Positions 3,001 through 43,495 of a DNA stretch of 64,000 nt are shown in pieces. Within the stretch, counting starts at the first letter, position 1, and each line of letters opens with the position of its first letter. Both the position numbers and the translations under genes were made by a program. Origin of the DNA: Bilabrum cf. latius (Eukaryota); assembly GCA_965178125.1 (NCBI GenBank), contig OZ237768.1, forward strand, positions 620,001-684,000. The letters are read 5' to 3'. The notes under the pieces are model-generated. The model saw nothing but the letters and a program-made list of their open reading frames with translations. It ran no database searches and had not been told where the DNA came from.

Positions 3001-3158
3001 CAGCGCACGTCTGGAGGAGATCTTCCGCCGCCAACTCCGGCTCTAGGTCTGAATCCCAACTGCAGCCGAACTGGCCGGATCGGCTTCTTCCGGCTGTGTG
3101 CCAAGGATACCAGTTTGAACTTCCTCGCAAGCGCTGCCTGAGCCCTACTCAGCAACTT

Positions 3159-3192
<34 letters not shown>

Positions 3193-6842: not shown

Positions 6843-9800
6843 TCACATGTACTGCTCTGCCTCATCATGTCTGCCCTACCCCTACAGCACTTGAATAAGG
6901 TCCCGCCTTCGTGAGAAATACACTGGATGGTACGTCCCGTGCTTGATCGCAGTGTACTCAAGCAGCTCTCTCATGGCATCAATGGCCCTGTCATACTTGC
7001 CCACCTATTGGCAGAGGTTTACAACCTTCCCGAGGTTGTCCACGTACCACGGTAGGTGCGTGCAACCGTTCGCCTTCAGGACCCGGTAGCACCGCTCGTG
7101 CAGATCAGCAGCCAAGCCAGGGTTTCCTGTCTTCACGCAGCATTCACAGACCTGGTACAGCATCTGCACGCTTGCCTCAGCCTCAGCCTGGCCTTGGCAC
7201 TCTTGATGCTTGGCATCGTACAGCTGCACAGCAACCATTGCCTGGTCAGCCATACCATGGTCGAGCCGGTCGATCCCGTTCAAATAGTCTGCCTTGCGCT
7301 GGAGCAGGTCAATCAACAGGCCATGGTCCACCTGTACACGACCACTAGAGCCAGAGACAGAGTACCTCGCAGCACTCCCTTCGGCACTCGGGGATTCAGC
7401 ACCACACTTTCCATCGGAGGCTCCTGCCCCGTTGCCCGAATCTCGCCTCGCTGCACTCCATTCATCACGAAGCAGTCTCTGGGCTCCATCAATCGCGGCG
7501 GTAAGGCAGCCATCCAGCAGGCGCAGCGCCTCGTCGTGATTGCCCAGGGCTTTCAGGCTTTGTATCAAGGTGATCAACGTCCCCTTGTACTCGGTATGCA
7601 GTGGACCAAGCCATCTTCCTTCGATATCTAAACACTCTTGCAACAGACTACACGCCTCCGAGTGATTGCTCTGTCTCTGCCGACACTCACCTAGATGATA
7701 GCACGACCGAGCATAGCGCAGTGAACAAGACCTATTTCTGCCTTTACCTTGCATGGATTGCCTGCACTCGCGAAAGGTCTCCGCGGCCGCATCGAGTTTC
7801 AGCATTAGCAAGTAGCACCGCCCAATGTTGAGCTCGCCATCCACGTAGTCTGGGTGCTACTTGCCAATCCTAGCTTTCCGAATGATCTGGCACTTTTGGT
7901 AGCTAGCCATCGCCTCCTCATACTTGCCTTGCTCTCGCAAGCACGATCCGATGTTGTTCAGGCAGCTGGCATACAAGGGGTGTGACGTGCCGACCGAACG
8001 ACTATAGGTCTACATGGCTCGCTAGTAGTACTGCATTGCCGCGTTGAGGTCTCCGTGTGATTCAACTAGGAAGGCACCGGTGTTTGACAGTGCGACACCG
8101 TACTGTGGATGCATCTTCCCGAGCACCAGTTCTGCAATATGAAGCGACTACTGTTGTAGGCGTAGAGCCTGCCTTGCTTCGCCCATACTACGCATGCAAA
8201 TCGCCATGTTTCTCAACGATGTGGCATACTCGTCGTGCTGAGTGCCATATAGAGACTTCCTAAGCTCTAAGCATTCTGAGAACAACTCCTTTGCCTCAAT
8301 GTAGTGTTCGGCTTGCTGCAAGCTTGCAGCAAGATTACTGACTGCGCTAACGTACTCTGTGGTACCCTTGCCGTATGCTCTCTCATTTATCTGCAAGCTC
8401 TTACGATAGTGTTGAATGGCCTCATCGTAGAGTCCCTGCTCCATCAAGCAGGTTGCCATGTTGTTCAGCACCTTGCTGCACTCAGTATCCCACTCACCAA
8501 GATGTTGCGTCAGAATTGCTAGACTACTACGCATTAAATCCATGGCCGGATCATACCTGGCCAGACTAGACAATGCCCCTCCCAACCTATTCTAGGCGGC
8601 TGCGTGCTAAATAGACCCTTTGCCGTGCGCGGTCGTCGCCACCCGCAGAGCTTCTACAAACGTGTCTGCGGCCTCATCCATGTTTCCCAGGGTGAACAGG
8701 CATGTCGCAAGCTTCGTTAACGCGGCCACGTACGGATCAAACGCCTTTTCTCGATCCTGCACCGGTGTTTCTGGTGTAAACTCGATCATGGTTCCCGTGG
8801 AGCGAGACATACGCTCTTGGGCACAGAGTGTGGCGGTGGCGATGCGCAAGGTGCGAAGGCCTGAGGACCGTACCGCAAACGAATCGATAGACCTGATAAT
8901 GGATGCAGCGCCCTGCGACCCGATTCGCTGCATGTGCGCCAGCTCACGGAACAGAGGGGCAGTAGCCTCACGACTCGAGAGACGGTGGACGCCTCCAGAA
9001 GCGGCGATGTCAGTTCCAACGCAGACGGTTGGCCCGTCATCCAGTCCCGCTGATTGGTGCCCCTGGGAAGCTGCAAATGCAGCCATACCTTCCGCTAGCA
9101 CTGATTCGCACAGGTTGTGAACCCCTTTGGAAGCATAGCAGTAGGCAGCGAACAGAACACACGGCGGCGTAGGATTACTCTTCCCTGCTAGTCGGTGGCC
9201 GGCCAGCTGAATTGAATTGTAGGCCAGTGACGTACTTCGAATACCAAACACAAGCGCTTTCTATACTTGAGCTTTGACGCTGGTGGCCGGATCCAACGCG
9301 TCCACAAGCAGTCTTGAATGTCGAAGGCCGAGGCCTACCGAGTGCATTGCTCGCTTGATCGTGTCACGATGCCGCGCAAGATGTACGGCTGGGTCGAAGC
9401 CTTCGTCCATGCACATCTCAATGGCGATTTCATCTCTGTAAGCTTCTACACATCGGCCTCTGGCAGCTGCGTATAGCCGCTTTATCAAGGCAGATGCCTA
9501 TCGTCTTGCTTTACCACCGTCGCTTGCCATCATTATCATGTCAGGGTTCAGCCCCCCTGACTCTGCGTTCGTTGACAATCGCCGCAGATGATCGCTGGCC
9601 TCCGGAGGAAGCAGGCACGCGAGGGTCACCCCTCCGCAGTAGAGCCATTGGGGGCAGGACACAACGGCTACTGCGCCTGTCGTCGCTCCACCGCTTGCAT
9701 TACACCGTGCCACTACACAACCAGCATCTGGGCACACTTGAAGGTCGCTAGAATCGAACCGAATCCGTGCACTGCTGGCAGCGGAACTACCATGAAGTCC

Positions 9801-11993
9801 ACCTACACTTCTACAGCCGTGATCGTCGCACCACCCGTTCAGTGCTGCAGCAAGCGAATCCAAACGGTCAGACTCGGGCAGGAAATAACATCCATCAAAC
9901 ACAGGTAGCTGCCCAGTCTCAACACTGCCATTGATGACCATCCAAACTCGCGGAGCCGCATCCGTCGACTTCATCCAGTCTATCCACACGACGTCTGGGA
10001 TCAGCAGCCGGTGGGTGTCCAGCACCATCCGCTGCCCATTGTCCAGCTGATGGAGCTCCACGTCGAAGGGCAGATGAAACGTGAACTATGCATCCTCTGA
10101 ATCGACGACAGCATGAGTCTTTCGAGGCAACGCCAGCACGGCACGATAGTCTAGGACTGCTCCAGAGGCCCTGATCGAGTCTGCCACCGCCCTATCAAGG
10201 TCAAACTCCTTGTTGGAGAGCTCCTCATTCGAAGCAGAGGCAGCAGATGGACCAGACTACTCCACGAGGTGCCCAGGATCTAGGACCTTTTCCACCTTGC
10301 GTAATGCGGCTGGATCCATCCCCGCAACGCGCATCGAATCGACGATAGATGGAGGCTCCACAGGTGTCGGAGTATCACCCTCCACCTCACCAGAGGATCC
10401 ACGGCAGGCAATAGCAGCCGTATGAGCAGCCGAATCACGGTACAAGTGTTCTATGACATGAGCCCTTCCTATGTACTGGCCTACGAAGAAGTGCTTGGCC
10501 AGTGGCTTGACCACGTCCTCCAGCTGCTCCTCGTCCCAATGAGCCGACCTGCCACCATCCGAAGACCCGACTCGCAGTGTTGTGCTACTCCACGACGTTG
10601 GATCGGAGCGGCAATAGCCCCTGATACGAACCAGAGCAAATACCTGGACACGAATGATGATACTTTGACCACCAGTGAGCCGAATGGGCAAGTCAACGCA
10701 CTGCAGCAAGGGAGTTGATACGTGCACGCTGTCCATCGCATGCACCCACCGACTCGCCGCCGCCTCTCGCTTGGCCGCCTTGGCTGCCATTCGATAGCTT
10801 CCATAAATTTGATGCTTCTCGTTGTCGAAAGGGAACTTCAAGAAGAGCCCAAGCGGCTCATGTATGGCCTTAACTCCGCCCGCGATGCCACCAGCCTCGA
10901 TGAACCTATTCCCCGTGCACTCCTCGATGGCTCGCTTGTCAGCATCGGTGAATCCAACGGGATTCCCACTACTCGCAAACTGCATGGCCACAGCTGGGAA
11001 GCCACTAAGTGCGCTCATCACATCGGCTCCAAACTCAGCACCGGTTTCCTGCAGCTTATCCTTTCGGATTTGCTGCTGGAATGGATACAGGGCGATTTCC
11101 CGCTTGGCTTCCTCAAAGGCTGTCTGCCTGCTGGAGCCTTCACTGTATGCAGCGCCTTCTTCTTCACCGGGCCCATGTGTGGTCACTGGCGGATCGGTAT
11201 GACCCGGCGCCGTGCTTCCGCTCGACGAGTCTTCGCTCCGTGTGGCTCGCGAGGCCATAGGCCTCTGCGACGGTGGCGCGTGGAGATCGTCGGGATACAT
11301 GGAGGTCCCCGCCCCCGATGCTGCAGGTTGGCTTGCAGAGTGGCTGGGTGTTTTACTACCGGCAGGGATAGAGCCGGATGCACATGATGCGCTGCTGTCG
11401 CTGCTGTCGCTGGCTGCACATGTGGTTTTGAGAGAGAGAGGCTTCTCCGGGGCCTGGCCCGCACTTGCCGCTGCCAGCGTCGAGCCGCCACCAGCAGCAC
11501 CATAGGTGCTTTTCACAGAATCTGGTGGCTGTGAAACATGTTTACCAGCTTGGTTCGGTAGGAACAAATTGTCGCATTCTGCCCCATCGATGCCGGCGAA
11601 TCCTGACTGTCCAGCCAGAAGTCGAGCGCCTGATCTAGCCCCTGACCCCGCTGTAGCTGCTCTGCATGTGGCCATAGACTTCTACAAGCATGCCGTTCTA
11701 TCACTCTCGCCATGTGAAGCGGCTTCTACATCTCTTGGTGCATCGCATCCGACGGCTGTAGTGCTACCGAGACAGCTTGCTGGAGCAGCACGCTGGTCCG
11801 AGTCAGATACGCTGCCAGCAGAAGAATTGCACTCAGGCTGACGCTAATTTCCTCTTGCAATCGTATTACATGAGCCGGATTCCATCTGCGGCCTCAAATT
11901 ATCAGTACTGGAGTCTGCAAAACCTGAACTTTCTACTCGAGCAGTCTATTGCGTCTCGCCTGCTGAGATGCGGGCCAAATGCTGCCTCTCCAT
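6843..11993 (-). CDS. CLU (clustered-mitochondria) domain + kinesin-light-chain-type TPR repeat protein, paralog 1 (~1716 aa, TAG=Gln)
   Basis: One frame from ATG 11993 (alternatives 11885, 11675) to TGA 6843-6845, with about 16 TAG and no TAA/TGA. CLU motifs 'GLFLKFPFD..Y..AAKAAKRE..STPLLQCVD..TLRVGSSDGG' and 'FDVELHQLDNGQRMVLDTHRL'. TPRs such as 'LNNMATCLMEQGLYDEAIQHYRKSLQI'. Confidence 0.85.
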
Positions 11994-12307
11994 GATAAAA
12001 CCAATATAATACTGCTATTAATTTTGAAGTTGAGTAGCTCAAGAACAAAATGGGAATGCAGCACGCTTTGTTGACCTTGCTTAGCCAGTGCAACCGTCTA
12101 AATCGATCTCATCGAACCAATCAAGTACACGCGTAATGAAGCAGACATATAAACTTACCTTCTTGCAGTTTATTTCCGGTAGAGTATTTCTCTATGACTG
12201 TAAGTAGATCTAGCGTTCCAGATATCCGATTCCACGAAACAGAAAATAGAAATAAATACAGAAATACAGAAATACATTGTTGGGTAAAGATTCCGTAAGC
12301 ACCCAGA

Positions 12308-13340
12308 CATACCCCGCCAAAGGGGCTGTCAACAAGAGGGTTGTAAACTAGGGTGTCAACAACTATTTAGTCAAATCATGAGCTGTTGTCGACACCCCCC
12401 CCCCTTAAGGCGTGATGGCTTTGGGCACCGGAAATGGCGAATACATATTTGGATTATTCATTAAATGTACATATTAATGTCTTAGTCTAGCTATCAGCTA
12501 CCTTCTTGCATGTAGAGATAAAATTGTAGCGTTATGAGGTGCATGACCAATCTGCATTGCAGAAAGTTGCTCGTCAATTGCGATACGGCTGAGCTCGTCC
12601 TTGTCATCGATCAGCCCCTGCTCCGCTCGCAGCTTCTAGAGCATCAGCATCACCAATCTGGTTCTCATTTGCTCTGGGTACACACCTGGTTCCACCGGTA
12701 AGTCAGCACAACCGGGAAAAAGGAGTTGGAGTTGCTCCATACTGTCCTTGTCAAACACACAGATTTTCGATAGCATCTTCTCCAGAACTGCGATGGACAC
12801 TTCGCGGTCACGTCGGGTAAATTGCCTCATCTAAGCGTTGTTCGGGTGATAGCCCCGTCCTCCTGTCGTCACCGCAAGCCTTCAACACCGGGAAGAGCCG
12901 CTCCACCTCGGCACTTGAGAGCGGCTGCATTAGGACGAACCGAGCCATCTTGATTGTCGTTTGTATATTGCTCGCATTCCGCTTTGATATTCTTCACCCT
13001 ACCTTGCCTGCTACTCGAATTGGCCCTGCTGAAGCAACACTTCTCTGTCGAGATGACGCCGCGATCACTGCCGACACGAGCCGCTCGGCCTCCAGCCACA
13101 TCCCAAATGGGTCATCCTTGAACTTGCCGGCCTACAAATATCCCCAGAAGCGACTAGTATACCGATTTAGATTTCGTCTTTTGGTTTTTCTACTGATTCG
13201 GCGCTGCAGCTGTCAGCCGATGGACCCCCCTTTGGGGAAGGGGGTTATAAACTCCTCGAGCTAGCACCCCCTTTTGTTGACACCCTGTTGACACCCCCCC
13301 CCCCGGCCAAAACCTGTGTGCAACCCCTTGGCGGGGTCTG
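12308..13340. mobile_element. Non-autonomous hAT-like DNA transposon (~1.03 kb)
   Basis: Imperfect TIRs: CATACCCCGCCAAAGGGG (12308-12325) versus the reverse complement of 13324-13340, CAGACCCCGCCAAGGGG. Flanking 8-bp duplication CACCCAGA (12300-12307) / TACCCAGA (13341-13348). Subterminal TGTCAACA/TGTTGACA repeats in inverted orientation. No transposase motif seen. Confidence 0.7.
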
Positions 13341-14261
13341 TACCCAGATGCACCGTCGCCCCCGAGGGGGTTTGGGTGATCACCTAGATCCAGAGGAGCC
13401 CTAAAACAAAGGACTACAAGACTCCCGACCCTTTCAGGCCAAAGGCCCCCCGTTCTCAGCCTATGCCGCCGAGTTCCCATTCTTCGCCATCAGTGTGGTC
13501 CCCCACAGGCCCCCAGCCTGTTGCCTTCACAAGGAGAAAGCATACAGGTGCGGAGCGTGTGCCCGGCACAAGGCGCGGTCCAGTCCCACATCGGGGTCCC
13601 CGGTCGAGACCCACCATTTCCTCCTCCATGACCGTCTCTGCGTCTCACGATCCTTCAGAGAGGCGAGCATGCACGCGCTCATGCCTTTGGCCCATTGCCT
13701 CTCTATATCCTTTAGCAAGCCGTGGGGCTTGAAAATCCGTCGCTGTAGTCGGGCGTTCGCATTGGTTGCCACTATCAGCTCCTGCGTGGCCGTGGCGGCT
13801 AAGGCAGCCGCCGCATCACCACGCATCCACTGCCTGCATGTCAGCTGCTCCTGCTGGCGCAGCTGGTTTCTGAGCACCTGCACCACTCGGTTGGCCAGCA
13901 CCTTGACAGCTGTACGTTCCGAGGACCGTGCAATCGTGCGCTCTAACGATTGTATTCTACTTTATAGTGAGCACTTTTGCGAGATGCCGCGGCGCGTTCC
14001 GGTATTGGATCCTTCTGACTGATCCCTTTCCATCCGGTGCCTAAAGTCAACTGCAGTACTCCAGTGAGCGATACAATGTAGTGTCACTAGGTGTCAGCTT
14101 GCAAATTCTGATGTAGATTCTTGATCAGGCTTCAGTATTTCCCTATTATATTTCGCAGCTGCGGCAACTGTATCGCTTGTCGGACTACTTTGTCAAAGTT
14201 TGTCAGCCTGTTGCCTTCTCGTGCATTCTATTCCAGACTTTCACTCTTTGTAGTGGGTTTA

Positions 14262-17200
14262 ATGTCGGACAATGGCGAGAAATCTGGCAACCAAGCGACC
14301 GATCCTCGTCCTATCAGACGAGTATCGAAGACAGTGTCGATTGATGCGGAATCGCGATCCACAGATATCGATTCAAATATGCATGTGGATGATTCTCAAG
14401 TGGAGCCAGGATCCGGGGCGTACAGAGGCGCTCAAGCATTCGGCAGCGAGCATGCGGCCGTAGCTGCCCACACCGAGCATTCCGCGGCTTACCGCGGTGC
14501 AAGCCTACATCACATTGTTTAGGGCCCAAAGCAGCCAACTAATACATCTCAGACTGCACTCAGTGCATCATCTGGTGAGCCATGTCAAGTTTCTGGGCAT
14601 GGAGAGGATCCGGAACCTGCATCGTCGTAGACTGGCTTGCCCCCACCTGCGTCTGGTGCTGGCAGAGACTCGCCCAGAGCTCCAACAGATCCAGCAGATA
14701 CGGTAGATGAAGATGTTACAAGCACTATGGATGCAGTACCGCCTAGCGCCGACCCAGATACTGCTTCTAGGACTGCTGGCACGACCGAAGGCAGGTAGCC
14801 AGCATTCGAAGCAGCCAAGCGAGTCGTAGCCTTATATCCCTACCAACAGCAGGAGCGAGTAAACAAGCTCGAGGAAGTTGGCGGTCACTTCCTAGGTGAT
14901 GTTTATGAGGCCTTCAAGGGTTTCCCAGAGGTTGACTTGCAGTGGGACCAAGGCTATCCCGTCGCGTTCACGGAAGCAGACGTTAAATCGATCGAAGCCA
15001 GCACAGAGATTGCCTTTGTTGACGTCGGTGGATACGCGGGCGGTATCAAGGCGAGGCATGCAGGCCTAGGTCTCTTTCTTAAGTTCGCATTCGACCACAA
15101 TGGTTTCTACCAGAGCTCGCGCATGGCGGCCAAGGCGGCGAAACGTGAGGCAGCCGCGAGTCGGTGGGTGCATGCGATGGACAGCGTGCACGTATCAACA
15201 CCCTTGCTGGAGTGCGTTGATCTGCCAGTCAATCTTGCGAGTGGTGGTGAGTATGTTGTACGAGTGCAGGTCTTTGCATCTGTCGATGTGCGTGGATACA
15301 GCAATGCCGATCCAAAGTCGTGGAGTAGCACAACAATGCGAGTCGGGTCTTCAGACGGTGCCATGTCCGTCCATGTGGATAAGGAGTAGCTGCAGGACGC
15401 AGTGCTGCCTCTAGCGCGGCACTTCTTCATCCGAAAGTACTCTGACCACGTCGATACAGTGATCGAACACGGATACAATCGCGTTCGTGCGACAACGCAC
15501 GACAGCTCGGAATCGACTGTGTCCGATCCAGCCTAGCCCGACGCTGCAACTGGCAGGTGTGACGGCGATGCAGCTTCAATCGCAGCAGGGGCAGACGTGC
15601 GTGGGTTTGGAGGGTAGGCAGACCCCCTGATTCGCCCCGATGTACTCTTTGAACTCGGGCTAGACGCGCCCAGTCGCGCTGCTATCCAGAGCCTATGTAC
15701 GCCACCTGGTAGCAAGACTGCCAGAGCTGGTCGCGAAGAGAATGATGGCTCCCATAGAGATCTTACATTGAGAGAAAAGGATCTTGCGAAGGCTGTTAAC
15801 GATGCGATCCGTGACAGCGGCGCGGTTCTCGACTACTGCGAGGTCGATGCAGAATGCGTGGATCACGCAGTTCGGGGCTCGGCCGGGTCCTGCTAGTTCT
15901 ATCTGCCCTTCGACGTGGAGCTCCATCAGCTGGACAATGGGCAGCGGATGGTGCTGGACACCCACCGGCTTTTGATACCCGATGTCCCTTGGATTGACTG
16001 GGTCCGCTCGGGGGCCGCGCAGCCTAGGGTCTGGGTGCTCCTGCGTGGGACTACAAGCGTAGTGGATGGCGGCCTTGCCGACGTGCGACCTCTGGGCTGC
16101 GACGGCGAGCTCAATCTTGGCAGTGTGGCTGGCTAGCTAGCGCAGTGGTGGAAGCTAAAATAGCAAGAGGGGTCGCAATTCCCGGCTGCTGAGTTCAAAG
16201 CAAGCAGCCTAGAGCTAGACGCATCGCTGGGCTGCGTCGTCGCTCGAGGAAGAGAGGCCGACGGCAGCCTTGCGGCAATCGCCTGTCTCGCTTGCCCAGA
16301 ATGGTACTACCGAGGTGAACTCAGCGTGACATGTGTCCTCCCGCCGGAGTCAGCGCGCGCCTTGCAAGACTTGACTGGCGGCAGCGATCTCCCGGGCTTA
16401 TGTCCCGATCTGGTGATGGCCGGCGATGCTGCAGCCATGAAGGAGTCCAAAGATGCGATACAGCTGCTGTACTCCAACGCTCGAGATAAGCTCTTGGAGC
16501 GGTATGAGCTGGAGACCATCACGTTGATGTCTACAAACGACGACTACAACCCAGAAACTGATCTCGAGGAGCACCGGAGTGTGTTGAAGCGGACGCTTCA
16601 CGGTGTGGGTATCGGGCTGCGGCACGCGTACTTGCTATTGGAACAGATTGACGATGACGATACCCGGCAGTCCATCATGCGTTCGCTTGCCATTGGAATG
16701 CGGCCGTAGTCTGTGGGGAGTTTTGCTCGAGAAGCATTTGCCTCTCGAATCAAAGAGCAGGCAAGCAAGGCAGGCCCGGCGTGGCAGCACACGCACGATA
16801 GTCTTACGACTCTTGCAGCAGCAGCGCACATGTATGCCTCCAAAGGCCTGCATGGTCTTGATCTTTCCCATTCATTTGAACCATGCCGCACCACTCACGG
16901 CGGCGACGCCAAGCTCATGGTGCCCTTTGATCGAGCTGGCCGGCGCTGCGTAGGCACCGAGCTGGCTTCAGCTGGAGGCATCCGACATCACGATCCAGAG
17001 ACGCACGCGCGATCCCTCATCCATGAGCTGGCACATATTCAAGCGGTAGGTGCTGGCGGCCAGTTTGAAGCGCTGTCCTAGCTGCAGAGCCTGGCGTGGC
17101 TCTCATCTGGCCTAGAGCCACTAAGGCTGTGGTCGGCTGCAACGGCCATGTCTTACGCCATCAGGAAGTCCTAGCTGCGTACGTCAAGGGACGCTACAAA

Positions 17201-18824
17201 GCAGGCTTAGTTGAAGGTTGTGCAGTACGTGCAGAATCTTGCTGGTCTATTGCGGACGAATGGGAAGCCTAAGGAGGCAATTCAGCTCTATGAGGCCTGC
17301 CTTCGGATGCTGAAGAATCTGGGTGAGCCTGCTACTACGAGGCACGCCAGTACCACCTCCGGCATGGCTGACTGCTACACCGCCCTTGGCAGAGTAGACG
17401 AAGCCAAGAAGCTATTCGAAGAGAGCTGTTTCATTCACGAGAACCTAAGTGGGACCCGCAGCTCTGACTACGCACAGGCCAGGCAGGGTGTCGCATCATG
17501 CCTCGAGCAGCTCGGAAAATTCGATGAGTCTGTGGCAATCATGAGGGACTGCATCGATATCCTGTCTTGCACTGTTGGCATCTAGCATCCAAGGTACATC
17601 TGGAGCCTGAAAAGCCTTGCGGGGTTATTGAAGACGAAAGGAAAGTATGCAGAAGCCATGGCGATGCTGGAGGATAATCTAGAGTCTGCCAGGCGCGTAT
17701 TCGGGACGCAGCATGCTATCTACGTGTCGATTAATCGCACCATGGCAACCTGCCTGATTGCGTAGGGCAAGTTTGGTGAGGCGGCCGAATGTCTTCAACG
17801 GAGCCTGGCTACTGAAGAGATTCTCTTTGGGCGGCAGCACCGACGGTTCGCGGGCACTCTGCGCGAAATTGGAGAGTGTTTAAGGCATCTGGGGTAGTAT
17901 GAGGAAGCCATCAAGGTGTTAGAATAGTCACGGGATATCCTCAAGTCAACAGTGGGTCCTCACCACGCTGCCTATGCTAGTACTCTGACAGACCTGGCTG
18001 GCTGCGTTGCCCTAAATGGCGACCATGTAGGCGCGTCCCAAATCATCCAGGAGTGCAGGCAGGTAAATGAGAAGGTGTATGGCTGTAACCACCCCTGGTA
18101 TGCAAACACGCTCAGCAACACTGCCACCCTATTCAACCAACTTGGCAAGTTCAAGGAGGCCCAATCTCTGTTTGAGGAGTGCATTGCCGTGAGGCAAGCA
18201 AGTGGTGGGACAGAGCACCCTGACTTCTCAATCACTCTGGATGCGTAGGCGAGCTGCTATTAGAACCTCGCTCTCTACGACAAAGCAAAGGAAGCCTACG
18301 ATGAATCGCTGCGCATTTGCGAGGCATTCCATGGCAGGGACCACCCCGGCTACATCCACACGGTGGTCAACTATGCTGGACTCTTGCAGCAGCAGGGCAA
18401 GCTGCCAGAGGCGTTGTCAATGTTTGTGTGGTCTAAGGATGCAATGGCGCGCCTGCCAGACCGCAACTGGTCTAACTATGCTACCGTCGTAGGGAATATT
18501 GCTGGTTGTCTGTATCTGCTTGGCAGGCACCTAGAAGCTCTTGAGAGCTACCAGGAGGTTCTGGAAATGCAAAGAGAAGCCCTGGGGGTATTCCACGTCA
18601 GCTTTGAGAGCACGCTGTCAAAGACTCTGTTTGTCTGCCAGTGCTGCAGCAGGGATGGCTAGGCCATCGAATTGCTGTACGGGGTGCTAGACTCCTACGA
18701 GGCAAGCGGCGGCAACAATCACCCCAAGTACAAGAAGCGCCTGGAATAGCTGGTGTTTTTCCTGCGCCGTGCTGGTAGGGAGGACGAAGCGGAGGCGTGG
18801 CAAGAAGTGCTCGCAGCAAATTGA
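14262..18824 (+). CDS. CLU domain + TPR repeat protein, paralog 2 (~1520 aa, TAG=Gln)
   Basis: ATG 14262 to TGA 18822-18824 in one frame with about 21 TAG and no TAA/TGA. Clear homology to paralog 1 (LYPYQQQ, GLFLKFAFD, AAKAAKREAAASRWVHAMDSVHVSTPLL, VELHQLDNGQRMVLDTHRLLIPD), followed by a long TPR array. Confidence 0.87.
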
Positions 18825-18889
18825 GTATCCTTTTAGTGCATTTCTTTGGTGCTGTGTCGTGGACAAGGCACTGGCACAAATTTGAATAC

Positions 18890-21800
18890 CCGGCGCCGTG
18901 AAAGGTCGGATTTGGCCGACCGACCGGTATCGCCGATATCGGTACCTTCAATTCACCTTACCGATTCTCGCGTACCATTCAAGTAATCCTAAAATAATAT
19001 CAAGATATTGAAATTTGTATAAGTTAACTACCGACTGCGAGTGTTACTCATTGATAAACTTGCGATAATAGTATACTTGGTGGTCATGAAACCAAACGCT
19101 CGATTTTCAGGAAGGGCTACTTTGGTACTGCAGAAGTTTGTCCAAGCAGGCATGCTTGCAAAATAAACAAGCTTTTTTGAATTCATTGGTGGTTATATTA
19201 TATATAAGTCTTAGCGCAAAAAAGTTACCGAACGGTTTACAAGATATTGAATCGAATGTGGACCTGCCATGAATTACGTGCTTCGTGACCCGATTCTTGT
19301 GCATCCATCTACTTGGCATTTATATCAACTTAATCTACATCACAGCCAAATTCTGTTTCCAGATGATACAGAGATTCTTTAAAATCCCCACAAATGAACT
19401 TGCAGCAGCGTGAACACACTTTATAGGAAGAAACCGACTAATGATGCTGCCGCTTGCTGCATCTGGAGCCCTTGCACTTGGCGCTGCACCCCACTCCACG
19501 GCTCTTTGATCGTCCGCTACTGAGAACTTTAATCAGTCCTGCTTGGAACTACTCCGTTCCAATCAAATGGAGCGAGCCCAGCAGCGTAGCTACCGCGTGC
19601 TGCTTTCTACATCCAAGGTTCCCGGGGGTCGCCTCCGCACGCATCCCAGCTGAGGTTGCAGCACCGCGAGTTCCTGCACGTGCATGTCGGTAAGGACGCA
19701 TCAATTCGTCATACAACAGCTGCACAAACATACCATGAGCCTGTAGATGCCGCACCATGTGCTAAACCTGTTCCTGAACGGATTTGCTGCTAGCTCCAGC
19801 AGCTTGCCGACGAGTGGGTCCGTGGCGTAGCAGTCGACGTGCCTCCAAGTTGACCCAGATGATGTACGTATTGACGATAACTTGCTCCATTAAACCTTCC
19901 CACACTCTTAAGTATGCCCTAGTCTCTCCCTGGAATGAATTTGTTAGCGAAAGTTGCGTCCGGAACTTGTCAGCTAGATCCACACCCCCCATGTACTTGT
20001 TGTAGAGGACGGACACGAGGGGCGCGTTCACCACACTCAGGTCGCCACCATCTCTCCGTAGCGTCTTTACCAAGCAAACAAAGTACTTCGTAGGAATGTT
20101 AGAAGCCATAAGAAATGGTGCGCGGTCACAGTATCCAAAAACTTGCATCCCAGAAGCTAAATCATCTGGCGAGTCAAAGGCTACTGTCTGGCCAGGGCTC
20201 AACAGGCCCCGACTGCCAAGGTCCTCTTCGGCCAGCAGCGATCCCGCAGGAAGCTCACTCGCATCAAAAACATCACCAGTTGTTACATTACATGAAGATA
20301 CTTTGCTGGACCCAAGAAGAGCGCGCTTCACAGCCTGCCCGCGTTCGCCTGGGGTTCGTCTGTTCAGCTAGCCAATAGCGTGGTACAGCTCACCGCTCAC
20401 TTTGCCTTGGCGAAGCGTGCCAACAACCCAAAGGCCTTTGCTGGTGGCCCAATCACACAGTGGAGCCGATGTAAAGTAGTTGTCCACCGCTAGGAGGCCC
20501 CCGTTCAAGTTTTTGCCCATTGCCATCGACGCAACAGCTGCTGTTTGCAGGTCCATCCGGGTCAGCTACCCGGCAGCGGTGCCGCTGCCGGTTGCTACCT
20601 TATACGAGTACTCAGCCTTCCCCCTGTACTATCGTGTATCATCGGCAACAGATGTTGCTAGATCCAAATGGTACACATACCCGTCTTTTCGTGCAGCTGC
20701 CCATAGCTTAAAGCCATGCGATGTGGGCTTGTTCGGCATGATGACACATGCCCGATTTCGGCCGTACGCCATCACCATCATCTCATCGACGGCGATGCTC
20801 TTTGGGCTCAAAGTAGCCGCACGAAAGTACTTTGAAACTGCATCTAGCATGCCTGGTGGATATTCTATGAGTACCCGCTCGCGAGGACTGCCCACACTCC
20901 CTAGCCTCATTGTGGCGCGCTCCTCCGCCAGCAGGGGTGCCGGAGCCTCCTGCAACCTCCCGGCGAAAGACAAGTTTCGATGGAACCGATTCCAGTCTTG
21001 CACTACGATATCGTCTTTCATGCGCACCAGGAACTACTTTGATTGCAGCAATTCTAAAGGTATCCGGGGTCGAATGAGAGACCGAGTCAATGCCACGGCC
21101 AGGAACATCATCGCAACTGGCATGTCCATTGGTTGGTCGCTGCCGGCTGGCCGGCTGCCTGGCCAGCTACCTCTGCCGCTGCAGTGCCTCGCCACGAAAA
21201 TGCAATATCGAGAGGCACCAGCGAGCACAGAATGCGTATTGGAGATATTGGTTGTTCATGATGGGCCGTCATCCAGCCTTTGACATACTCAGTAGCAGCC
21301 ACATGAGTAGCCGCTGTGCGAGCGATCGGGATCCCATCACCGCCAATCACAACCCGGTCATTCAAGAAGTACCTATATTCAGGCTCATCAACCAACGATG
21401 CAAGTTTGTCCATAGGAAACATACTTTCATATTGCTCTATTCTGCGCCGCTTTGCTTGGTGAGCCTACTGCCTCCTACGATGCTGCACCGGAGGCCGGCT
21501 CAAAGTTGCAGACCGACTGGATACCGGCTCGTCCTCGTCTGAATCGCCGACATAGTCCATATCATCATCGCTGGCCTATGCTTCGCCCAACAAATCACGT
21601 AAATCATCATCTTTTGTCGATTTATTTGCATTGTCCTGTTGCCGTTTACGCTTGGACCCAGCGCGTCGGCTCGAACTGGCCGCATGGGACGGGCTGCTTC
21701 TTGACTACTTGCTAGCAACCGAAACGCTAGATATAGGTTTACAAGATCCCAATGAGAATTTTGGGATTGACTGAGATGCTTCTGCGAAGGCTAAGCACAA

Positions 21801-22785
21801 ATAAGCGATGAAGGCTGATATCAGTGGCCTTGCAGCAACACCGTGCATGGCCAATTCTGCAAAGGACGCAAGCCCGATTGTGGCCCTATTATACCTCTGT
21901 ATAATTATTTAAGCTCGTCCACATCACCATGAAATGATTATTCAACCAACACCTCGTCAAGCATACCACGGATGCATGGATACTGTCAATGAGTGCCACA
22001 TTCGTGGCTTCTGGTGCCTCTGCGGCAGATTGTACGGTACCCCGAAACTAGCCGGCTAGAGCCCATGCAATTCCATCAACCATAACAATACCGTACTCAC
22101 TTTGATCGATGAGCCTGGGTTTGGCGGATTTCTGCTCGTGACGCCGAGACGAGGCACTCCCACCAGGGGCACTTGCACCCCGAGACCCAACTTCGGACGC
22201 GCCGCTGGAGCCACTTTTTCGCCTCTCACTCGTTCTTCTCGCAAACTTAGACGGAATCCTCCACATGATATTGCATTCAATACCCTTGTATCTCAACAGT
22301 AGTGCCAGTGTGTTAAAAGTCTATTGCGCTAAGGTATAAATGCCCTGCAAATTTTGGAACCGTTTGAACCGACGTGTGTTGGAATGGCAGCCAAATTTCG
22401 CTGGATTGCCAATGAATGAGCCTAGCGACCTGATAACATGTTGTCAAATATGTGTTTAACCACTAAATACCAACAGAAACCAAAGAAAAGCTTTTGTGGC
22501 GGCACACGGTGCGTGCATCTGGCACCCCTCGCCAGCGAGTAAAATCTTGGGCTGGGGGTGGTCGCCAAAAATGGTGGTCGCAAGCACGACTCGTTTTCAG
22601 TCTAATGATGCGAATTGCATGGCTCCGTTGGGACTGCATTACATTTAAATGTTATATTAGATATTTTTGCAATGTAAATTTACCCAAGAAATTGGTCCAG
22701 TTCTCAGCAATGGGAGCCTAAAGGCACGATGGTCGCGATTTTGGGACTCGGAATGCCAATAATGGCGGACCTTTCACGGCGCCGG
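18890..22785 (-). mobile_element. piggyBac-like DNA transposon (~3.9 kb) with ATAC target-site duplication
   Basis: Perfect 18-bp TIRs CCGGCGCCGTGAAAGGTC (18890-18907) / GACCTTTCACGGCGCCGG (22768-22785). Flanked by ATAC at 18886-18889 and 22786-22789. Encodes a piggyBac-type DDD transposase. Confidence 0.9.
19330..21848 (-). pseudogene. piggyBac-family transposase (TAG=Gln), interrupted by one frameshift near 21150
   Basis: Motifs AVDEMMVMAYGR, PNKPTSHGFKLW, VDNYFTS, GTLR, YNKYMGGVDLAD (all three catalytic Asp present), an acidic N-terminus and a Cys-rich C-terminus (CSAKC..C..CSRCCKFIC). About 10 in-frame TAG. Ends at TAA 19330-19332. The N-terminal part is in another frame. Confidence 0.82.
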
Positions 22786-22851
22786 ATACTGGACACGAAA
22801 ACCCTTGGATAGTTCTCGATGTTGACTTAGCTAACTTAGATACAATGACGC

Positions 22852-25800
22852 TTACAGTGGATCCAAACGAAATCCAGTCATCGACACCTCTCCCGCCACA
22901 CAGAGGGCCGCAATCGTGAGCACCATACGAGAGGGCAGATCCGGTGGAGGAGCTGCCGCCACGCGCACGATCGCCACCGAAGACCTCCTGTTCCCTGACC
23001 CGCCGCCCATGCCGCTGCTGCGACGGCTCGACACCGCCCCGCGGCCGGAACGTGACTGCGATGCCCCGGCCATTCCCACCCCCACTCCCACGCTGCTGCG
23101 CCGCCTGCCCCTTCTTCCACCTGCACGCGAACCGGACGCACTGCCACCCTCGGCCGTGCCACCGATCTAGCTGGCCTGGCTCGACCGCCTCATGCCTCCA
23201 CTGCCACCCACACCTACACCGCCCGTACCGTCCATCGTCGGATCCACCGGTGGAGCGCAGCCCCAGTCCTGCAGCACCGGCCCAGCCTACCCCCGGAGAT
23301 CCGCTGGCAAGAACGTGGGGCACGCGTTCGAGTCGGCGAGTCTCGCGACCGCCTCCAGAAAATCCGTGAAGGTTAGCGCCGTGTGCACGTACCTCTACGA
23401 GTCCTTGCTACTTCTCCTGAGCTCATCCACCACGGTCATGGATGAAAACACGAACACGAGCCTGCAGTCGCGGTCTGTGAACGGGCCCGTGACCGCGTCT
23501 GCCGCGGCAGCAGGGTCCCAGTCGTCCTCCTTGTTCCCAGACCCATCCCCTCCACCGGTGGACCGCTTGCCCGCGCTGCCCAACCGGCTGCCCCGACCCC
23601 CATTCCCATCCCCAAGCAAAGAAGACAGCTCAGAGGTAGCAGAGCCGCGGCGCCCGCGCCCGGCACGGCTCCCTCCCCCACCCAAGCCAAGGTCGGGGCT
23701 CTCGCGGCCGCCGCTGCCCAGCTCCACCACACGCACACCGCCCGCACCAGAGATTGCACCCCCGGGCCCTGCACGAGATGGGGCCCGCCCGTTGCCTGCT
23801 CCCCGGCGGCCCGTGGAAGCGGCCCGGCGGCGGGTTTTTGCAACAGGACCTGCCCGGCTCCGCCCCCCCCTTTGCATGCCGGGCTGGGACCCCCGCCTCT
23901 CCAGATCCGCTAATCCGGAGCCGGAAACTACGGTACCGGCCCCGTCGGCCAGCGCGTTGATGAGACCCGCCCGATCCACCAGCTGCGTGAACTCCCTGCA
24001 GGTCATGAACCTCTTCGCCTTGTCCTTGTTGCTGTGGCTCTTGCCCGAGTACTTCTAGAAGAGCCTCTGCAAAGGGGCGAGGAACACGCGGAACGTTCTG
24101 TCCACTGCTGGCGCGTACAGCCGCTTCCTCCTGAAGAGGTTGGACCAGGGGTCGTGAAGGGACCGGAGGCCCAGCACGTCCCGCACTGTGGGCAGGATGC
24201 ACGCGTGGAAGAGTTTCTGCACCGATACAGATGGACCGTCGTTGCTATCCGCGGGCGGGAACATGATGAGCGCGAGCCTCAGCACAGCCTCGATGAACTC
24301 GAATCTGCAGAGCGCATGGTCCGGATTGGCTGCATCAGAGACCTCCTCGTAGTTGGACGAGATGAACACCATGTCAAGCTGCACTTCCCTGTCTGCCCTT
24401 TGGATGCTGCACGCGTGTCTGAACATCGTGAACTGGTTCAAAGACATACTGTGGGGATCTGTGACCGAGGAAGAGGCCCAGAACCTGAAGGCCTCCCTGA
24501 GGACAGGGTAGTACTGCCTGAGCCTGCGCTTGACGGACGCCCGCTGCGAATCGTCCCGCACCACCCTGTCCGCCTTTGTCAGCTGCCAATCCGCCTCGAA
24601 GGCACGGGCCAGCAGCGCGGGGGTGTCGAAGAAGCTGCGACCGTCAGACTCCAGCAGTCTGGGCCTGAAGACGCTCCTGCGCAGGCCCCAACCGTGCTTG
24701 CCGTCCTCGTCTTCCCCTTCTCCATCGTGCAGGTGCAGCCGAGCTGCCAGCGCACCCGGGACCCTCGTCTTCTCTGGCCACTCAACCGGGATTGACGCGA
24801 ACACTGTCCTGTGGGCCAGCACCTGGTTGGCCAGCTCCCACAGGGCCTGCACGGCGGACTCACCCACGATCCTAGGCGGACCGTCGCCCGTGTACGCACT
24901 CGTCACACCGGCTGCAGCACCGGGAGGAAACCCGCCTAGGCGAGTCCCAGTCCCAGACCCAGCCCCAGCTGCCCTTGGGCTAGCGCCTGTGCCTCTCTTG
25001 GGGGAAGGGCCTGCCCTGCCAGGCGACTTGCTCTGGTTCCCCTGAATCTGCTTGAGTCTCTCGTTGGCCGACGTACCCGGCCGCACGGCTCCCCACGCCC
25101 CTCCCATAGCCGCGGAGGCATAGGCTGTAGAAACTGGCTTGGCTTCCTTGCCCTTGCCCTTACCCTTGCCTTTGCCTTTCCTTTTCTTCTTTTTAATTTT
25201 CCTGGGCTGCCATGGGTCGTACTTCCGATCTGCGGCTGGGAATGGGTGCTCCTCGGGCCGTTCGCCGCCCCTGCCGCTCACTGCCGTGGGTACCAGCTGC
25301 ATGGACGGAGGCTCCCCGAGCGTGTTCTCGACGGCTAGCTCCGTCAGGCTGGAGTTCCAAGACAATTTTGCCTGGCTGGTTGTTGTTTTGCCAGTGGGAT
25401 GCGTGCTTCCCAACGCAGCGATGAGTGATTTCGTGGCTTCGAACCCCAGGGGATTGAACCCCAGCCGCAGGGCCAGCAGGTGGCGGTTTCGGCGGAGGGC
25501 CGCAGCGAACGCCATCGCGGCAGGTGCCCCAATCTGGTTGCTGGACATGTCTAGCTCCCTCAAGGGGGACAGCAGGCCGGCGGGCTGGTCAGGTTTGCCA
25601 CCTCCACTCACGGACGACGGCGGGCCTCCGCGGGTGTGACGAGTGCCACCCGCGCCGAGGTCGTCCTTCCAGCCGGCCTGGGCCTCTAGGACTGCCGCCC
25701 ACGCGCTCGCCCCCCGGGTCCCAACCCCGTTGAAGGCCAAATGAAGCGACCGAATGGACTACGGCGCCGCAACCAGGGCTGTGGCCTTGATGGTGTGACG

Positions 25801-27720
25801 AGTGACATGGTGGAACCCGTGGCGGCCGCCGTGCCGCAGCCCACCAGCCCCATCAATGCCCCGCGCTACCCCTCCCCCGCCCGACCCCCTTGCGGGGTCC
25901 TCCTCCACCACTTTGCGCGGGGGGGGGAGAGGAGACAACTGCGCAGCGGCCGCGTGCGGCTGCATGGCAACGCAGGCGAGGGCCACGGCGCCTTCGTCCC
26001 CAATGTCGTTCCAGGAGAGGTCCAGCGTGCGCACGGGGCCGGACACCATCATTCTCATCAGCGGGGCAAGGGAACGCGGAGACAGGCCGCAGCGGGCCAG
26101 GTCCAGCACCTGCAGCCGAGCCGATCCGTGCCTTGCCACGTCATAGTGAGTCACTTCCCGCCGCCAATCCACCGATGGAGCGCCACCCGTCCCTCCCAAG
26201 CTGCTCTGACTGGCCGTTCCAGGCGCGCTCGTCACACCTGCACCGTGCGCAGGGTCTTCTATTTCGGTTGGTACGCGGGCGGATTCGGAGGCGTGCGACC
26301 TCGCGTGAATGCCAGCCGACTGTAGGCCGATGGTCGCATCTGCCCTGGCCCGCAGCTCCTCGGGAGCCTAGGGCTTCACCTGGGGACCCCTGGGCTGGAA
26401 CCCCCTTTTCTTCGGCTTGCGTGGGGGCTTGAACTTGGCCATGCGCATCCTCGGGGATCGGACCCCCGCAGCAGCCGCGAAGAACGAGGAGGACACGGTG
26501 GCGGTGGGCTCGCCCGGGGGGATGGCAGCGGAGGATGCAGGGGCCGCTCTTCGGAGCAGTCGCATGGCCTCGTCCCGTTTGTCCACCCCTCCCCTCCTCT
26601 TGGCCGCCTGCGTGGCTCTCATTCTCCTCTGCTTGACCTCCTTGGAGGCGTTGTCCTCGCCGATGATCCTGTTCCCCCGGGGATTGAGCCCGCACTCTTT
26701 CAGCAGCCCATCCACGAGGACAGGCACCTCCGGCGGCAGTCGAGGCTCCCGACCCTGCGCACTCGTCACACTGGAAGGGTCCCCGTCGCCGCAGACGGCC
26801 TCGGCGAGTGCCGCCAGCCCCGGGCCATCGAGGAAGCTGCACCCGCTGAGCGACAGCAGCTGCAGCCTGCGAGCCGCCAGCCCTATGGCGCCTGCGCACC
26901 CGCACGTGAGCGCCGGATTGTCCCCCAGCTCAAGGGCTTTGAGCCTTGGTGCCACGCCATGCACGAGGGCCCGGCAGAGCGCCACAGCGTCTGCGTCCAC
27001 CAGGCTTGTACCCGCCAGGCAAATGCGTCGGATCCGCTGCGCGGACAGTGCCAGCGAGGGCAAGACGCATGGTCGCAGCTGCCTGGCCACCGCTGGGTCC
27101 CCAGGCGCCGCCAGGGCAGTCGCCTCTGCTCCCAGGCCGGCGATCACGCTAGCCGACGGCGAGAACCCGAGCGACTTGCACATAGACTCGTACTTCTGGG
27201 CCGGATCTGCGACGATCGTCAGCGCGCTAGAGCCGTGATGGCCTCTATGCTTGCCTTGCAAATCGTCGAAAAGATCGATGTCGAGCCCGCTGCCGTTTGG
27301 GTGAGCACCACTGCCAGCAAAGTTGATCCTGCGGCTACTCTTCGGGGGAGATCGGTTGCGAGAACCAGTGCGTCTGGATGACATCTTGACATCCATTGGT
27401 GACGTGAGAATGGGAGCACGCTTTGGCCTCGCGGGCTCGAGCTTCGTCTCCTCTGCAGGGTCCTGGGATTCCCAGCCCGACGCCTGCCGTCGTGGTTGCA
27501 TGGTTGCCCGTAGTCCATCGAACCGCGACGAAAGGCTTCCTGATGCAATAATGCCACTTGTTATCTTCTTCAGGGTCGATCGCGCAGAGAAAGATCCTGT
27601 GGCGGGCTGTGAGGGGCCGCTCGAGACGCCGAGCTTTGACAAGTCGATGGTCCGCATTTTGCCTCCTCTCCTGTAGCGCTTCTCGATGTCTGCTGCAAGG
27701 GACGAATCAGTTCGGTCCAT
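22852..27720 (-). CDS. Leucine-rich repeat (RNI-like) protein with C-terminal EF-hand-like helical region (~1622 aa, TAG=Gln)
   Basis: ORFs 26368-27720, 25759-26235, 24055-25740, 23395-24006 and 22852-23091 share a frame, joined by 6 TAG. LRRs 'LKALELGDNP', 'VRTLDLSWNDIGDEGA', 'LRELDMSSNQIG', 'LRLGFNPLG'. Repeated 'FEFIEAVLRLA' / 'FTDFLEAVARLA'. Ends at TAA 22852-22854. Confidence 0.75.
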
Positions 27721-37018: not shown

Positions 37019-37186
37019 TTGACAGGTGCATGCACAACTGATATTACACATCTGCCTGATTGCGCTCGTGTTCGCAATGTCACAGCAAGCGGATGAAACA
37101 CGAAGACTTGGTGATTTAGATCCGGATCCGATCGTAGGAATTCGAATTCGCAGCCTCAGCTCTCCTAAGGCATTTATTTGAGCAAC

Positions 37187-43200: not shown

Positions 43201-43495
43201 GCACGTGACCGCCCTGGAGCCCACGCACGACCCGCAGGTGCCTCTAGGCCCGCCCCTGGCGCACGTGCAGGATGTGACGAGTGCGAGGGCGGAGCAGATG
43301 CGGTCCTAGGTGGCCGGGGTGCTGGTGGCGGGCATGGCGGGGAGGACGGTGCTGTAGCAGCCGGGGAGGGAAGTGCCAGTGGGGGGCGAGCACGAAGGGA
43401 GGGGCAGGAGCTTGAGTAGGAGGGTGGATTCGGTCGCTGTGGATGCCGTGGCCTTGTCGTCCCAGGTGGCGGAGTTTGGCGCGCTGGACTATTGA
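40206..43495 (+). CDS. SNF5/SMARCB1-repeat domain protein with N-terminal HTH-like segment; intron 40356-40453
   Basis: Two SNF5-type repeats: 'LFIDVTAAGLRVQD..LTPEELAASLCSDLGV..VALQIRQQL' and 'VDVRAGDLVLQDRVVLDLS..VACSLVRELEL..VAACLQEQV'. GTAAG..CGCAG intron keeps the frame. Four TAG; TGA at 43493-43495. Confidence 0.65.

Follow-up and report, generated by a model that had tools for sequence, protein, structure and literature searches.

UAG as a probable glutamine codon, with UGA as the main stop, in GC-rich DNA of bicosoecid-like stramenopile affinity

In the fornicate Iotanema spirale, UAG encodes glutamine, and UAA and UGA serve as stops (Panek et al. 2017, PMC5304391). A tRNA-Gln(CUA) derived from tRNA-Gln(CUG) and an altered eRF1, with a T32G change in the GTS motif, were inferred for this species (PMC5304391). 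UAG is also translated as glutamine in the ciliates Hartmannula sinica, Trochilia petrani and Protocruzia tuzeti, which have a GC content of 27–54% and use UAA as the stop in 87–98% of genes; UAG is widely used inside their genes, and a dual meaning is not indicated in that description (McGowan et al. 2024, PMC11687900). Leucine is assigned to UAG in the rhizarian exLh and in TARA phyllopharyngean ciliates, and serine in Scotinosphaera (PMC5304391; PMC11687900). UAG-only reassignments as listed by McGowan et al. (2024) comprise Iotanema, a rhizarian, Scotinosphaera, Protocruzia and five phyllopharyngean ciliates, i.e. fewer than a dozen lineages (PMC11687900). The configuration that the initial annotation of the DNA studied here had called rare is indeed rare but not new, being already known from Iotanema and some ciliates (PMC5304391; PMC11687900). 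Both UAA and UAG (UAR) are read as glutamine in many ciliates, Hexamita, Streblomastix, ulvophytes and Amoeboaphelidium (PMC11687900).

The DNA analysed here is a single stretch of 64 kb, referred to below as the window, with a GC content of 50–67%. Its features are as follows.

1..5787, minus strand: long gene that continues beyond the window, without a Pfam match; 13 in-frame TAG.
6843..11993, minus strand: CLU1, a CLU-like + TPR gene of 1716 codons, among them 16 in-frame TAG and neither TAA nor TGA; stop TGA.
14121..18824, plus strand: CLU2, a CLU-like + TPR gene, 1567 codons as listed; 21 in-frame TAG; stop TGA.
19330..21228, minus strand: piggyBac-like transposase ORF (DDE_Tnp_1_7, E 6.6e-12); 7 in-frame TAG; ends at TAA.
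22852..27720, minus strand: LRR_6 gene; 6 in-frame TAG; ORF ends at TAA 22852–22854.
28300..31044, minus strand: main exon of EF2; 0 TAG, 0 CAA and 25 CAG; GC3 0.92.
31790..35776, plus strand: lc1, a low-complexity gene; 6 in-frame TAG; stop TGA.
37178..39961, plus strand: g37, a gene of two exons (37178–38699 and 38871–39961); 6 in-frame TAG; stop TGA.
38700..38870, plus strand: GT..AG intron of 171 nt (a multiple of 3); TAA 38828–38830 in the frame of both exons.
40316..43495, plus strand: SNF5-domain gene with an intron at 40356–40453; 4 in-frame TAG; stop TGA.
45061..53528, plus strand: four paralogs, t1–t4, with 2, 2, 2 and 4 in-frame TAG; all stop at TGA.
53812..57771, plus strand: two genes that stop at TGA, one HDAC-like with 2 TAG and one for an MFS transporter with 1 TAG.

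The paralogs t1–t3 are near-identical, and t4 has diverged. The sequence GTGACGTCA was considered as an explanation of a recurring G-V-T-S peptide and rejected, since it is not enriched (2 matches vs 0.41 expected).

An intron-aware tally of 18 gene frames (15,405 codons, Rpn13 excluded) gave 94 TAG and neither TAA nor TGA, in agreement with the earlier proposal that UAA and UAG are uncoupled in sense use. At least one in-frame TAG is present in 17 of the 18 frames, the exception being EF2. The off-frames of the same genes contain 123 TAG, 39 TAA and 264 TGA (frame 1) and 116 TAG, 63 TAA and 270 TGA (frame 2), that is, 102 TAA and 534 TGA together. Reading TAG as sense increases the summed length of ORFs of at least 300 aa from 11,693 to 29,691 aa (~2.5-fold); with TAA as sense the sum is only 15,110 aa. 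For the two CLU-TPR genes, the numbers of TAG first given as approximate, about 16 and 21 with no TAA, proved to be exact. TAG makes up ~0.6% of codons and ~15% of glutamine codons. It behaves as a non-preferred codon that, like CAA, is missing from the highly biased EF2. Given this avoidance in the most biased gene, it is as if UAG were less well decoded than CAG.

Both CLU1 and CLU2 match the Pfam TPR_12 profile (E 5e-60 and 2e-70, respectively); their matches to Pfam CLU are weak (31.5 and 24.3 bits, cut-off 24). The first ATG of CLU2 is codon 48. A metagenome scan with the CLU1/CLU2 alignment revealed four loci on independent contigs (L001–L004), and the same kind of scan with a single protein as query gave no relative. 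The family members at these loci carry 19, 9, 2 and 3 in-frame TAG, respectively, and no TAA or TGA; that of L001 has 1752 codons. With the CLU part of CLU2 as query, a word-indexed search for homologs gave no match in the range 861–2743 aa. A library of 1.84 billion proteins yielded 108 homologs of the 1,567-aa CLU2, 90 of them shorter than 500 aa. Since the same code is met on independent metagenome contigs, many standard-code database proteins of the group may be truncated at TAG. Short contigs are another possible cause of the short library homologs. ARAGORN detected no tRNA genes in the window or in L001–L004, and the eRF1 gene does not lie within the 64 kb.

Internal TAA, whose count had been suggested as a means of refuting the uncoupling, was found neither in the 15,405 window codons nor in the 1752 of the L001 gene, but the former number is partly circular, because the ORFs were delimited by TAA or TGA. 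Non-circular support for TAA having no sense use comes from CLU1, CLU2 and the L001 gene, which are colinear, without a break, starting at the CLU-like part and extending to the final TPR. Further support of this type is provided by the sole TAA within a verified coding frame, which is spliced out. In a scan for stops embedded in open frame, TAA with at least 80 open codons to either side was encountered 22 times and TGA 81 times; the scan was set aside as not specific because GC-rich sequence yields many spurious open frames, and only the TAA at 38828 among these cases lies within a verified coding frame.

These data bear on a code in which UAA and UAG both encode glutamine, as in NCBI table 6, and TAA is rare through high GC. 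The composition of the window would accommodate such a code, as TAA occurs less often on the given strand (237) than TAG (504) or TGA (845). However, CAA is in regular use, as noted at the outset: 163 CAA were counted vs 410 CAG (15,579 codons), an A-ending fraction of 0.284 that falls within the 12–47% shown by all other NNR pairs counted. At this preference, 94 TAG should be accompanied by ~37 TAA, and the chance of finding none, given a shared meaning, is 0.716^94, or ~2e-14. The 102 TAA in the off-frames of the same genes, the removal by splicing of the lone TAA in a coding frame, and the termination of two window ORFs and one L002 ORF at TAA also speak against it. Thus, a code of the table 6 type is refuted at the scale of the window, and we consider it very improbable altogether. 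UAG as a sense codon, with UAA not appearing as sense, is supported.

TGA is the main stop. It does not occur in frame and forms 17 of the 19 ORF ends in the window, which bears out the initial assignment of TGA to the other complete genes; the remaining two ends are TAA (19330 and 22852). The accompanying statement that TAA still ends genes may hold for the piggyBac-like ORF, in which TAA 19330–19332 soon follows a Cys-rich tail and is not overlapped by a donor-like GT. For the LRR gene it is doubtful: TAA 22852–22854 is located within CTGTAAGCG, a donor-like GTAAGC context resembling two verified introns, and therefore perhaps is not a real stop. Downstream of the LRR gene lie two minus-strand ORFs, 21108–21854 and 21889–22350, neither of which matches a Pfam profile. 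As the PAN3 ORF of L002 also stops at TAA, the use of TAA as a terminator is thinly shown by two of 19 window ends, one of them doubtful, and one ORF elsewhere.

The intron at 38700..38870 is absent from contigs of the spliced runs X5 and X7 but present in the DNA run X1; hence the TAA at 38828, the only one in a verified coding frame, is removed by splicing. Runs X5–X7 were taken as RNA by an automatic guess, with X5 flagged 'probably DNA', and their RNA nature was inferred because eight GT..AG joints in them are missing from X1. The comparison covered positions 33600–53599, with the CLU genes and the TAA ends at 19330 and 22852 outside. Within this region, 17 of the 19 in-frame TAG fall in the listed pieces of spliced-run contigs with no differing letter, including five of six in g37 (X5 contigs) and all four in the SNF5-domain gene. 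Hence, TAG is neither edited nor spliced away there. Two T>C changes, both in a single X5 contig (46203 and 46210), are the only differences, and no listed TAG is affected by them. Runs X8–X24 represent small shares of the stretch only, and a repeat is present at 33167–33525.

An origin of the in-frame TAG in pseudogenes, assembly error or editing of UAG to CAG found no supporting point. The frames are interrupted by TAG only and never by TAA or TGA, the window agrees at the listed TAG with both X1 and the spliced-run contigs, and the independent metagenome contigs have the same pattern, so that the likelihood of an artefact is negligible.

As most TAG occupy poorly conserved sites, assignment of the amino acid rests on a few strong columns. 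An alignment of CLU1, CLU2 and the family members from L001–L003 contains TAG (X) in a conserved context in the columns QXQQQ, QXQQQ, NHQQX and QQX; at TAG codons 226 and 423 of CLU2 the column is Q in all four other members. Of the 41 residues that partner TAG in this alignment, 13 are Q, as compared with a background of 3.9%. Against the library homologs, the best-conserved TAG of CLU2 (query position 199) is matched by Q in 16 of 33 aligned sequences and that at query position 2 by Q in two of two. TAG stands opposite CAG in five of 33 aligned TAG–residue pairs of paralogs, the three best-conserved contexts included; for instance, codon 58 of t4 is TAG opposite CAG in t1, with 12 of 14 flanking residues identical. 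For 15 TAG located in TPR repeats, the profile log-odds are highest for Q (+5.9), ahead of K (+1.5), E (−0.2) and L (−17.9); Q is also first for 20 TAG of the CLU part (Q +2.4 and K −0.3, with Leu outside the best eight). As a control for the CLU part, 200 size-matched sets of true Q positions were drawn, and Q came out on top in 192 of them.

Another residue, such as Glu, Lys or Leu, or ambiguous decoding would be favoured by the uncorrected raw likelihood, which puts E above Q in the TPR set and A above Q in the CLU set, and by the column LLLXL, in which a TAG of L002 faces Leu in the four others; UAG is known as Leu or Ser elsewhere (PMC11687900). True Q positions used as controls are likewise outranked under the raw likelihood. 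The single Leu column is to be set against QXQQQ, found twice, and QQX, and the 16 of 33 homologs with Q at position 199, the CAG partners in the best-conserved paralog contexts and the top log-odds of Q in two independent sets, with −17.9 for Leu in the TPR set, argue the same way. A sense codon for a residue other than glutamine, or an ambiguous one, is thus quite improbable.

Comparison with PDB chains was uninformative as an amino-acid test. The HDAC TAG faces A/N/R, and the three TAG in the aligned part of the L002 PAN3 lie opposite A/S, A or T, and F/Y/S in the solved chains; Q is not among these residues, which counts against glutamine. The solved PAN3 chains are distant, and the piggyBac-like ORF has no PDB match. 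Taken from the alignments, the support for TAG at conserved Gln positions is moderate, and glutamine is the most likely amino acid for UAG.

UAR or UGA can act as stop or sense depending on context in Condylostoma, Parduczia and Blastocrithidia. A code of this kind, in which TAG is Gln within genes and also a terminator near the mRNA 3' end, could escape notice here, since the ORFs were delimited at TAA or TGA from the start and a gene truly ended by TAG would only look longer. The PAN3 ORF of L002 does extend ~180–200 residues beyond the end of the solved PAN3 chains, with the first TAG in the extension ~40–50 residues past that end; low-complexity tails, however, are common among proteins of this organism. 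Homology defines five C-termini, those of EF2 (...YYDKL, then TGA at once), CLU1, CLU2, the L001 CLU gene and HDAC, and TGA follows in all five. In CLU1, TAG is located 10 and 12 codons upstream of the stop, in a TPR repeat that still matches the repeat profile. As regards TAG as a true terminal codon, the observation that the initial annotation had named as contrary to its reading, none of the five termini has it, but they are five only and the L002 PAN3 ORF is ambiguous. Context-dependent termination at TAG is therefore possible but unlikely.

The interpretation we hold with considerable confidence is that nuclear UAG encodes an amino acid, most likely Gln, while UAA and UGA do not encode any, and that UGA is the usual terminator. 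Such a code is most likely of the NCBI table 15 type, i.e. UAG-only stop-to-Gln reassignment. Because of established knowledge on such codes, UAG would be expected to be decoded by a tRNA-Gln with the anticodon CUA, which cannot pair with UAA, and eRF1 would have a weakened recognition of UAG.

EF2 groups, by its sequence, with those of bicosoecid-like stramenopiles, and the genome appears GC-rich and intron-poor. In the literature searched, in which few subscription journals were covered, no stramenopile, bicosoecid or MAST group was reported to have a reassigned nuclear UAG. With a slightly better than even chance, this would be the first change of the nuclear code in stramenopiles, in which bicosoecid-like flagellates captured UAG for Gln in a GC-rich genome with UGA as the main stop. 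AT pressure is the usual setting invoked for the loss of a stop codon, and a GC-rich, UGA-dominant background would, if confirmed, be its opposite. UAG-only codes bear on the mechanistic coupling of UAA and UAG in eukaryotic termination; an independent stramenopile case would give a contrasting background for codon-capture vs ambiguous-intermediate models and would also provide a naturally occurring variant of eRF1, possibly one that tells UAG apart from UAA and UGA. Gene prediction under the standard code would truncate proteins of this organism at each TAG.

Codes of the table 6 type resemble that proposed here in having a stop codon as glutamine; TAA is also Gln there, whereas no in-frame TAA occurs in the 15,405 codons of the window. 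The rhizarian exLh, the TARA phyllopharyngean ciliates and Scotinosphaera share the uncoupling of UAG from UAA but assign UAG to another amino acid, whereas here Leu scores −17.9 in the TPR set and Q columns dominate (PMC5304391; PMC11687900). In Hartmannula, Trochilia and Protocruzia, as here, only UAG is reassigned, and to Gln; these are UAA-dominant ciliates, in contrast to a stramenopile-like, UGA-dominant genome of 50–67% GC (PMC11687900). Iotanema, as characterised by Panek et al. (2017), has the same code table, with UAG alone reassigned, to Gln; it belongs to an unrelated lineage, and UAA is the primary terminator there, as compared with TGA in 17 of the 19 ORFs here (PMC5304391).

Whether UAG has been separated from UAA was examined in the following genes and ORFs.
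6843..11993, minus strand: CLU1, a CLU-like gene with TPR repeats
14121..18824, plus strand: CLU2, a second member of the same family
19330-21228, minus strand: transposase ORF
22852-27720, minus strand: LRR ORF
28300-31044: EF2
31790..35776, plus strand: lc1, a low-complexity gene
37178..39961, plus strand: gene with an apparent internal TAA
45061..53528, plus strand: t1-t4, four paralogous genes

ORFs of at least 300 aa sum to 11,693 aa with the standard code, 29,691 aa with TAG opened and 15,110 aa with TAA opened. The CLU1 and CLU2 ORFs include exactly 16 and 21 in-frame TAG codons, in agreement with the approximate counts of the initial annotation, and both end at TGA. The transposase ORF (7 TAG) stops at TAA 19330 and the LRR ORF (6 TAG) at TAA 22852, also as described there. 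CAA is in use, with 163 CAA versus 410 CAG codons (28% CAA).

Codons were counted in 18 gene frames (15,405 codons) whose limits take introns into account; Rpn13, in which an unmapped intron is probable, was left out. In the coding frame there are 94 TAG, 0 TAA and 0 TGA, and the two off frames include 123 and 116 TAG, 39 and 63 TAA, and 264 and 270 TGA, respectively. Thus, TAG is about equally frequent in and out of frame, and only TAA and TGA are kept out of the coding frame. If TAA had the same meaning as TAG and followed the CAA/CAG preference, ~37 in-frame TAA would be expected; by arithmetic from the CAA share, the chance of finding none among 94 or more is ~2e-14.

Since ORFs are delimited by TAA and TGA by definition, the absence of in-frame TAA needs outside support. 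Scanning metagenomic sequence with the CLU1/CLU2 alignment revealed four loci (L001-L004; 35–51% identity), in which in-frame TAG is present and in-frame TAA and TGA are absent. The CLU gene of L001 has 1752 codons, includes 19 TAG and ends at TGA, and CLU1, CLU2 and L001 are colinear and unbroken from the CLU-like part through the last TPR. At the scale of 64 kb and four outside loci, the uncoupling of UAG from UAA that had been proposed has good support.

A search for TAA codons linking two open stretches in one frame found only one inside a real gene, at 38828, where the ORF 37178-38830 ends and coding-looking sequence continues in the same frame to 39961. In contigs of runs X5 (>255 letters on each side) and X7 (35 letters), 38699 is joined to 38871, skipping a 171-nt segment with GT..AG ends that is kept in the contig of the DNA run X1, unbroken across 36840-41192. 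Hence, TAA 38828 is intronic, and the intron mimicked read-through because its length is a multiple of three. Seven further GT..AG joints of 89–99 nt were found in X5, X6 or X7 and are absent from X1, giving eight introns within 36185-52193. The precision of these eight joints suggests that the joined contigs of X5-X7 derive from spliced RNA, the RNA nature of the runs being itself an automated guess only, with X5 flagged 'probably DNA'. There are few introns, all of them short, and none is seen in several long genes (1,300–1,900 codons). Of the 19 in-frame TAG codons in 33600-53599, 17 are covered by contig pieces of the spliced runs with zero differing letters, which excludes their removal by editing or splicing.

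The genes t1-t3 are near-identical tandem copies (t1 and t2 are identical at 395 of 410 aligned residues) and t4 is a diverged fourth copy; all four have conserved motifs at both termini and a pair of short 5' introns in common, and none has a Pfam match. Within lc1, 33162-33746 holds 16.2 copies of a 36-nt unit (99% identity), which encodes a 12-residue peptide repeat. The word GGTGTGACGAG, usually followed by YG, occurs at 31 window sites at ≤1 mismatch versus 1.64 expected (e.g. 24899, 25633, 32975, 33821, 35051, 35351, 38735, 41750, 42230, 55318 and 59263), a count reached in none of 100 shuffles. Of these, 11 are exact and encode G-V-T-S in one frame. Most copies lie in sense orientation within low-complexity genes (lc1, SNF5, LRR), one is within the 171-nt intron, and L001-L004 contain none.

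In the paralog pairs CLU1/CLU2 and t1/t4, CAG (Gln) is opposite TAG in 5 of 33 cases, including the three best-conserved contexts, the other partners including Ser (4), Thr (4), Glu (3) and Ala (3); Q accounts for 3.7% of codons. Conserved-context TAG columns in the five-sequence alignment of CLU1, CLU2 and relatives read QXQQQ, QXQQQ, NHQQX and QQX, where X is TAG, and Q makes up 13 of 41 partner residues (background 3.9%). One conserved column, LLLXL, is against Q. Among 108 homologs from an exhaustive HMMER search, Q is present in 16 of the 33 aligned at the best-conserved TAG of CLU2 (query position 199) and in both of the two aligned at query position 2.

A TPR-repeat profile (40 states, 1,610 repeats, 120 homologs) was built with the window sequences kept out. 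Over 15 TAG, the summed log-odds were +5.9 for Q, +1.5 for K, -0.1 for R and -0.2 for E, with L (-17.9) and G (-21.8) at the low end. The CLU-part profile (20 TAG) also placed Q first (+2.4), followed by K (-0.3). In log-odds controls with real residues, the true residue was recovered in 192–200 of 200 draws; raw likelihood puts E or A first, but also fails at true Q positions (49/200). Distant PDB alignments are against Q, with A/N/R opposite the HDAC TAG and A/S, A or T, and F/Y/S opposite TAG codons of a PAN3 ORF in L002. The majority of TAG codons are at variable sites, a distribution to be expected if the codon arises by mutation at tolerant positions. Glutamine is thus the likely meaning of TAG and, given that TAG is a sense codon, very probably the correct one.

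TGA ends 17 of 19 examined ORFs, including EF2, where it directly follows ...YYDKL. The other two, transposase and LRR, end at TAA. The transposase TAA closely follows a Cys-rich tail and is not overlapped by any donor-like GT. The LRR TAA is embedded in CTGTAAGCG (22852-22860, minus strand), which includes the splice-donor-like GTAAGC, identical to the donor of verified introns at 40356 and 45009. The LRR gene may therefore continue beyond 22852; read by eye, AG occurs 67 and 138 nt downstream, with which the frame would extend by ~20–27 codons to TGA or another TAA. Outside the window, the L002 PAN3 ORF (3-1520; Pan3_PK, E 9e-34), which adjoins a CLU-family gene, includes 5 in-frame TAG and ends at TAA. 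Since 2 of 19 is near the neutral share (off-frame TAA:TGA 102:534), a terminator role for TAA is plausible, though thinly documented.

The code could also be context-dependent, with TAG terminating some genes. In the small sample of five homology-defined C-termini (EF2, CLU1, CLU2, the L001 CLU gene and HDAC), none needs a TAG stop, and in CLU1 the TAG codons located 10 and 12 codons ahead of the stop lie inside a repeat still matching the TPR profile. The PAN3 ORF runs ~180–200 Gly/Met-rich, low-complexity residues past the end of solved PAN3 chains; this extension may be either a low-complexity tail or the product of reading through a genuine TAG stop.

As a sense codon, TAG decreases in density with rising GC3, from 9–13 per 1000 codons in the CLU genes (GC3 ~0.6) to 0 in EF2 (0.92). 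It behaves as a non-preferred synonymous codon, which would fit a rarer tRNA or residual eRF1 competition. EF2 has extreme codon bias (CAG 25, CAA 0, TAG 0), and its listed ORF lacks the usual N-terminal residues, so that a short upstream first exon is probable. Since UAG is sense and UAA is not, CUA would be the only workable anticodon. Such a tRNA would most simply derive from tRNA-Gln(CUG), and an eRF1 with weakened UAG recognition would be expected; the same argument was made by Panek et al. 2017 (PMC5304391). No tRNA genes were found in the 64-kb window.

The window (GC 50–67%) encodes the eukaryotic proteins EF2, an SNF5-domain protein, a class of HDAC and WD40 proteins, as well as a Rpn13 Pru domain, a piggyBac-type transposase, LRR_6 repeats and two CLU-like proteins with TPR_12. 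The best EF2 matches (61–66% identity) are stramenopile (Cafeteria, Bicosoecida sp., Placilonga) or marine sequences. In a FastTree tree of the window EF2 and 50 of 120 listed matches (all named and the first 38), it falls beside a 91%-identical fragment in a clade with Cafeteria and Bicosoecida sp. that is sister to Placilonga. As a working placement from this single-gene tree, the source would be a bicosoecid-like stramenopile. The stretch 33600-53599 is present, mostly at ≥99% identity, in X1, X5, X6 and X7 under three organism labels from three studies; it could belong to a small flagellate in cultures of other organisms.

UAG-only reassignments were reported first in Iotanema spirale (Gln) and a rhizarian (Leu), where UAA is the primary or dominant stop (PMC5304391). 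McGowan et al. 2024 (PMC11687900) adds Scotinosphaera (Ser), Protocruzia (Gln), Hartmannula and Trochilia (Gln) and three TARA ciliates (Leu), and gives UAA as the stop in 87–98% of genes in five UAG-reassigned phyllopharyngean ciliate genomes. In the full-text literature searched, subscription journals and preprint supplements aside, no altered nuclear code is reported for stramenopiles. The code table of the window is that of Iotanema, but it occurs here in another lineage, at high GC and with UGA as the dominant stop.
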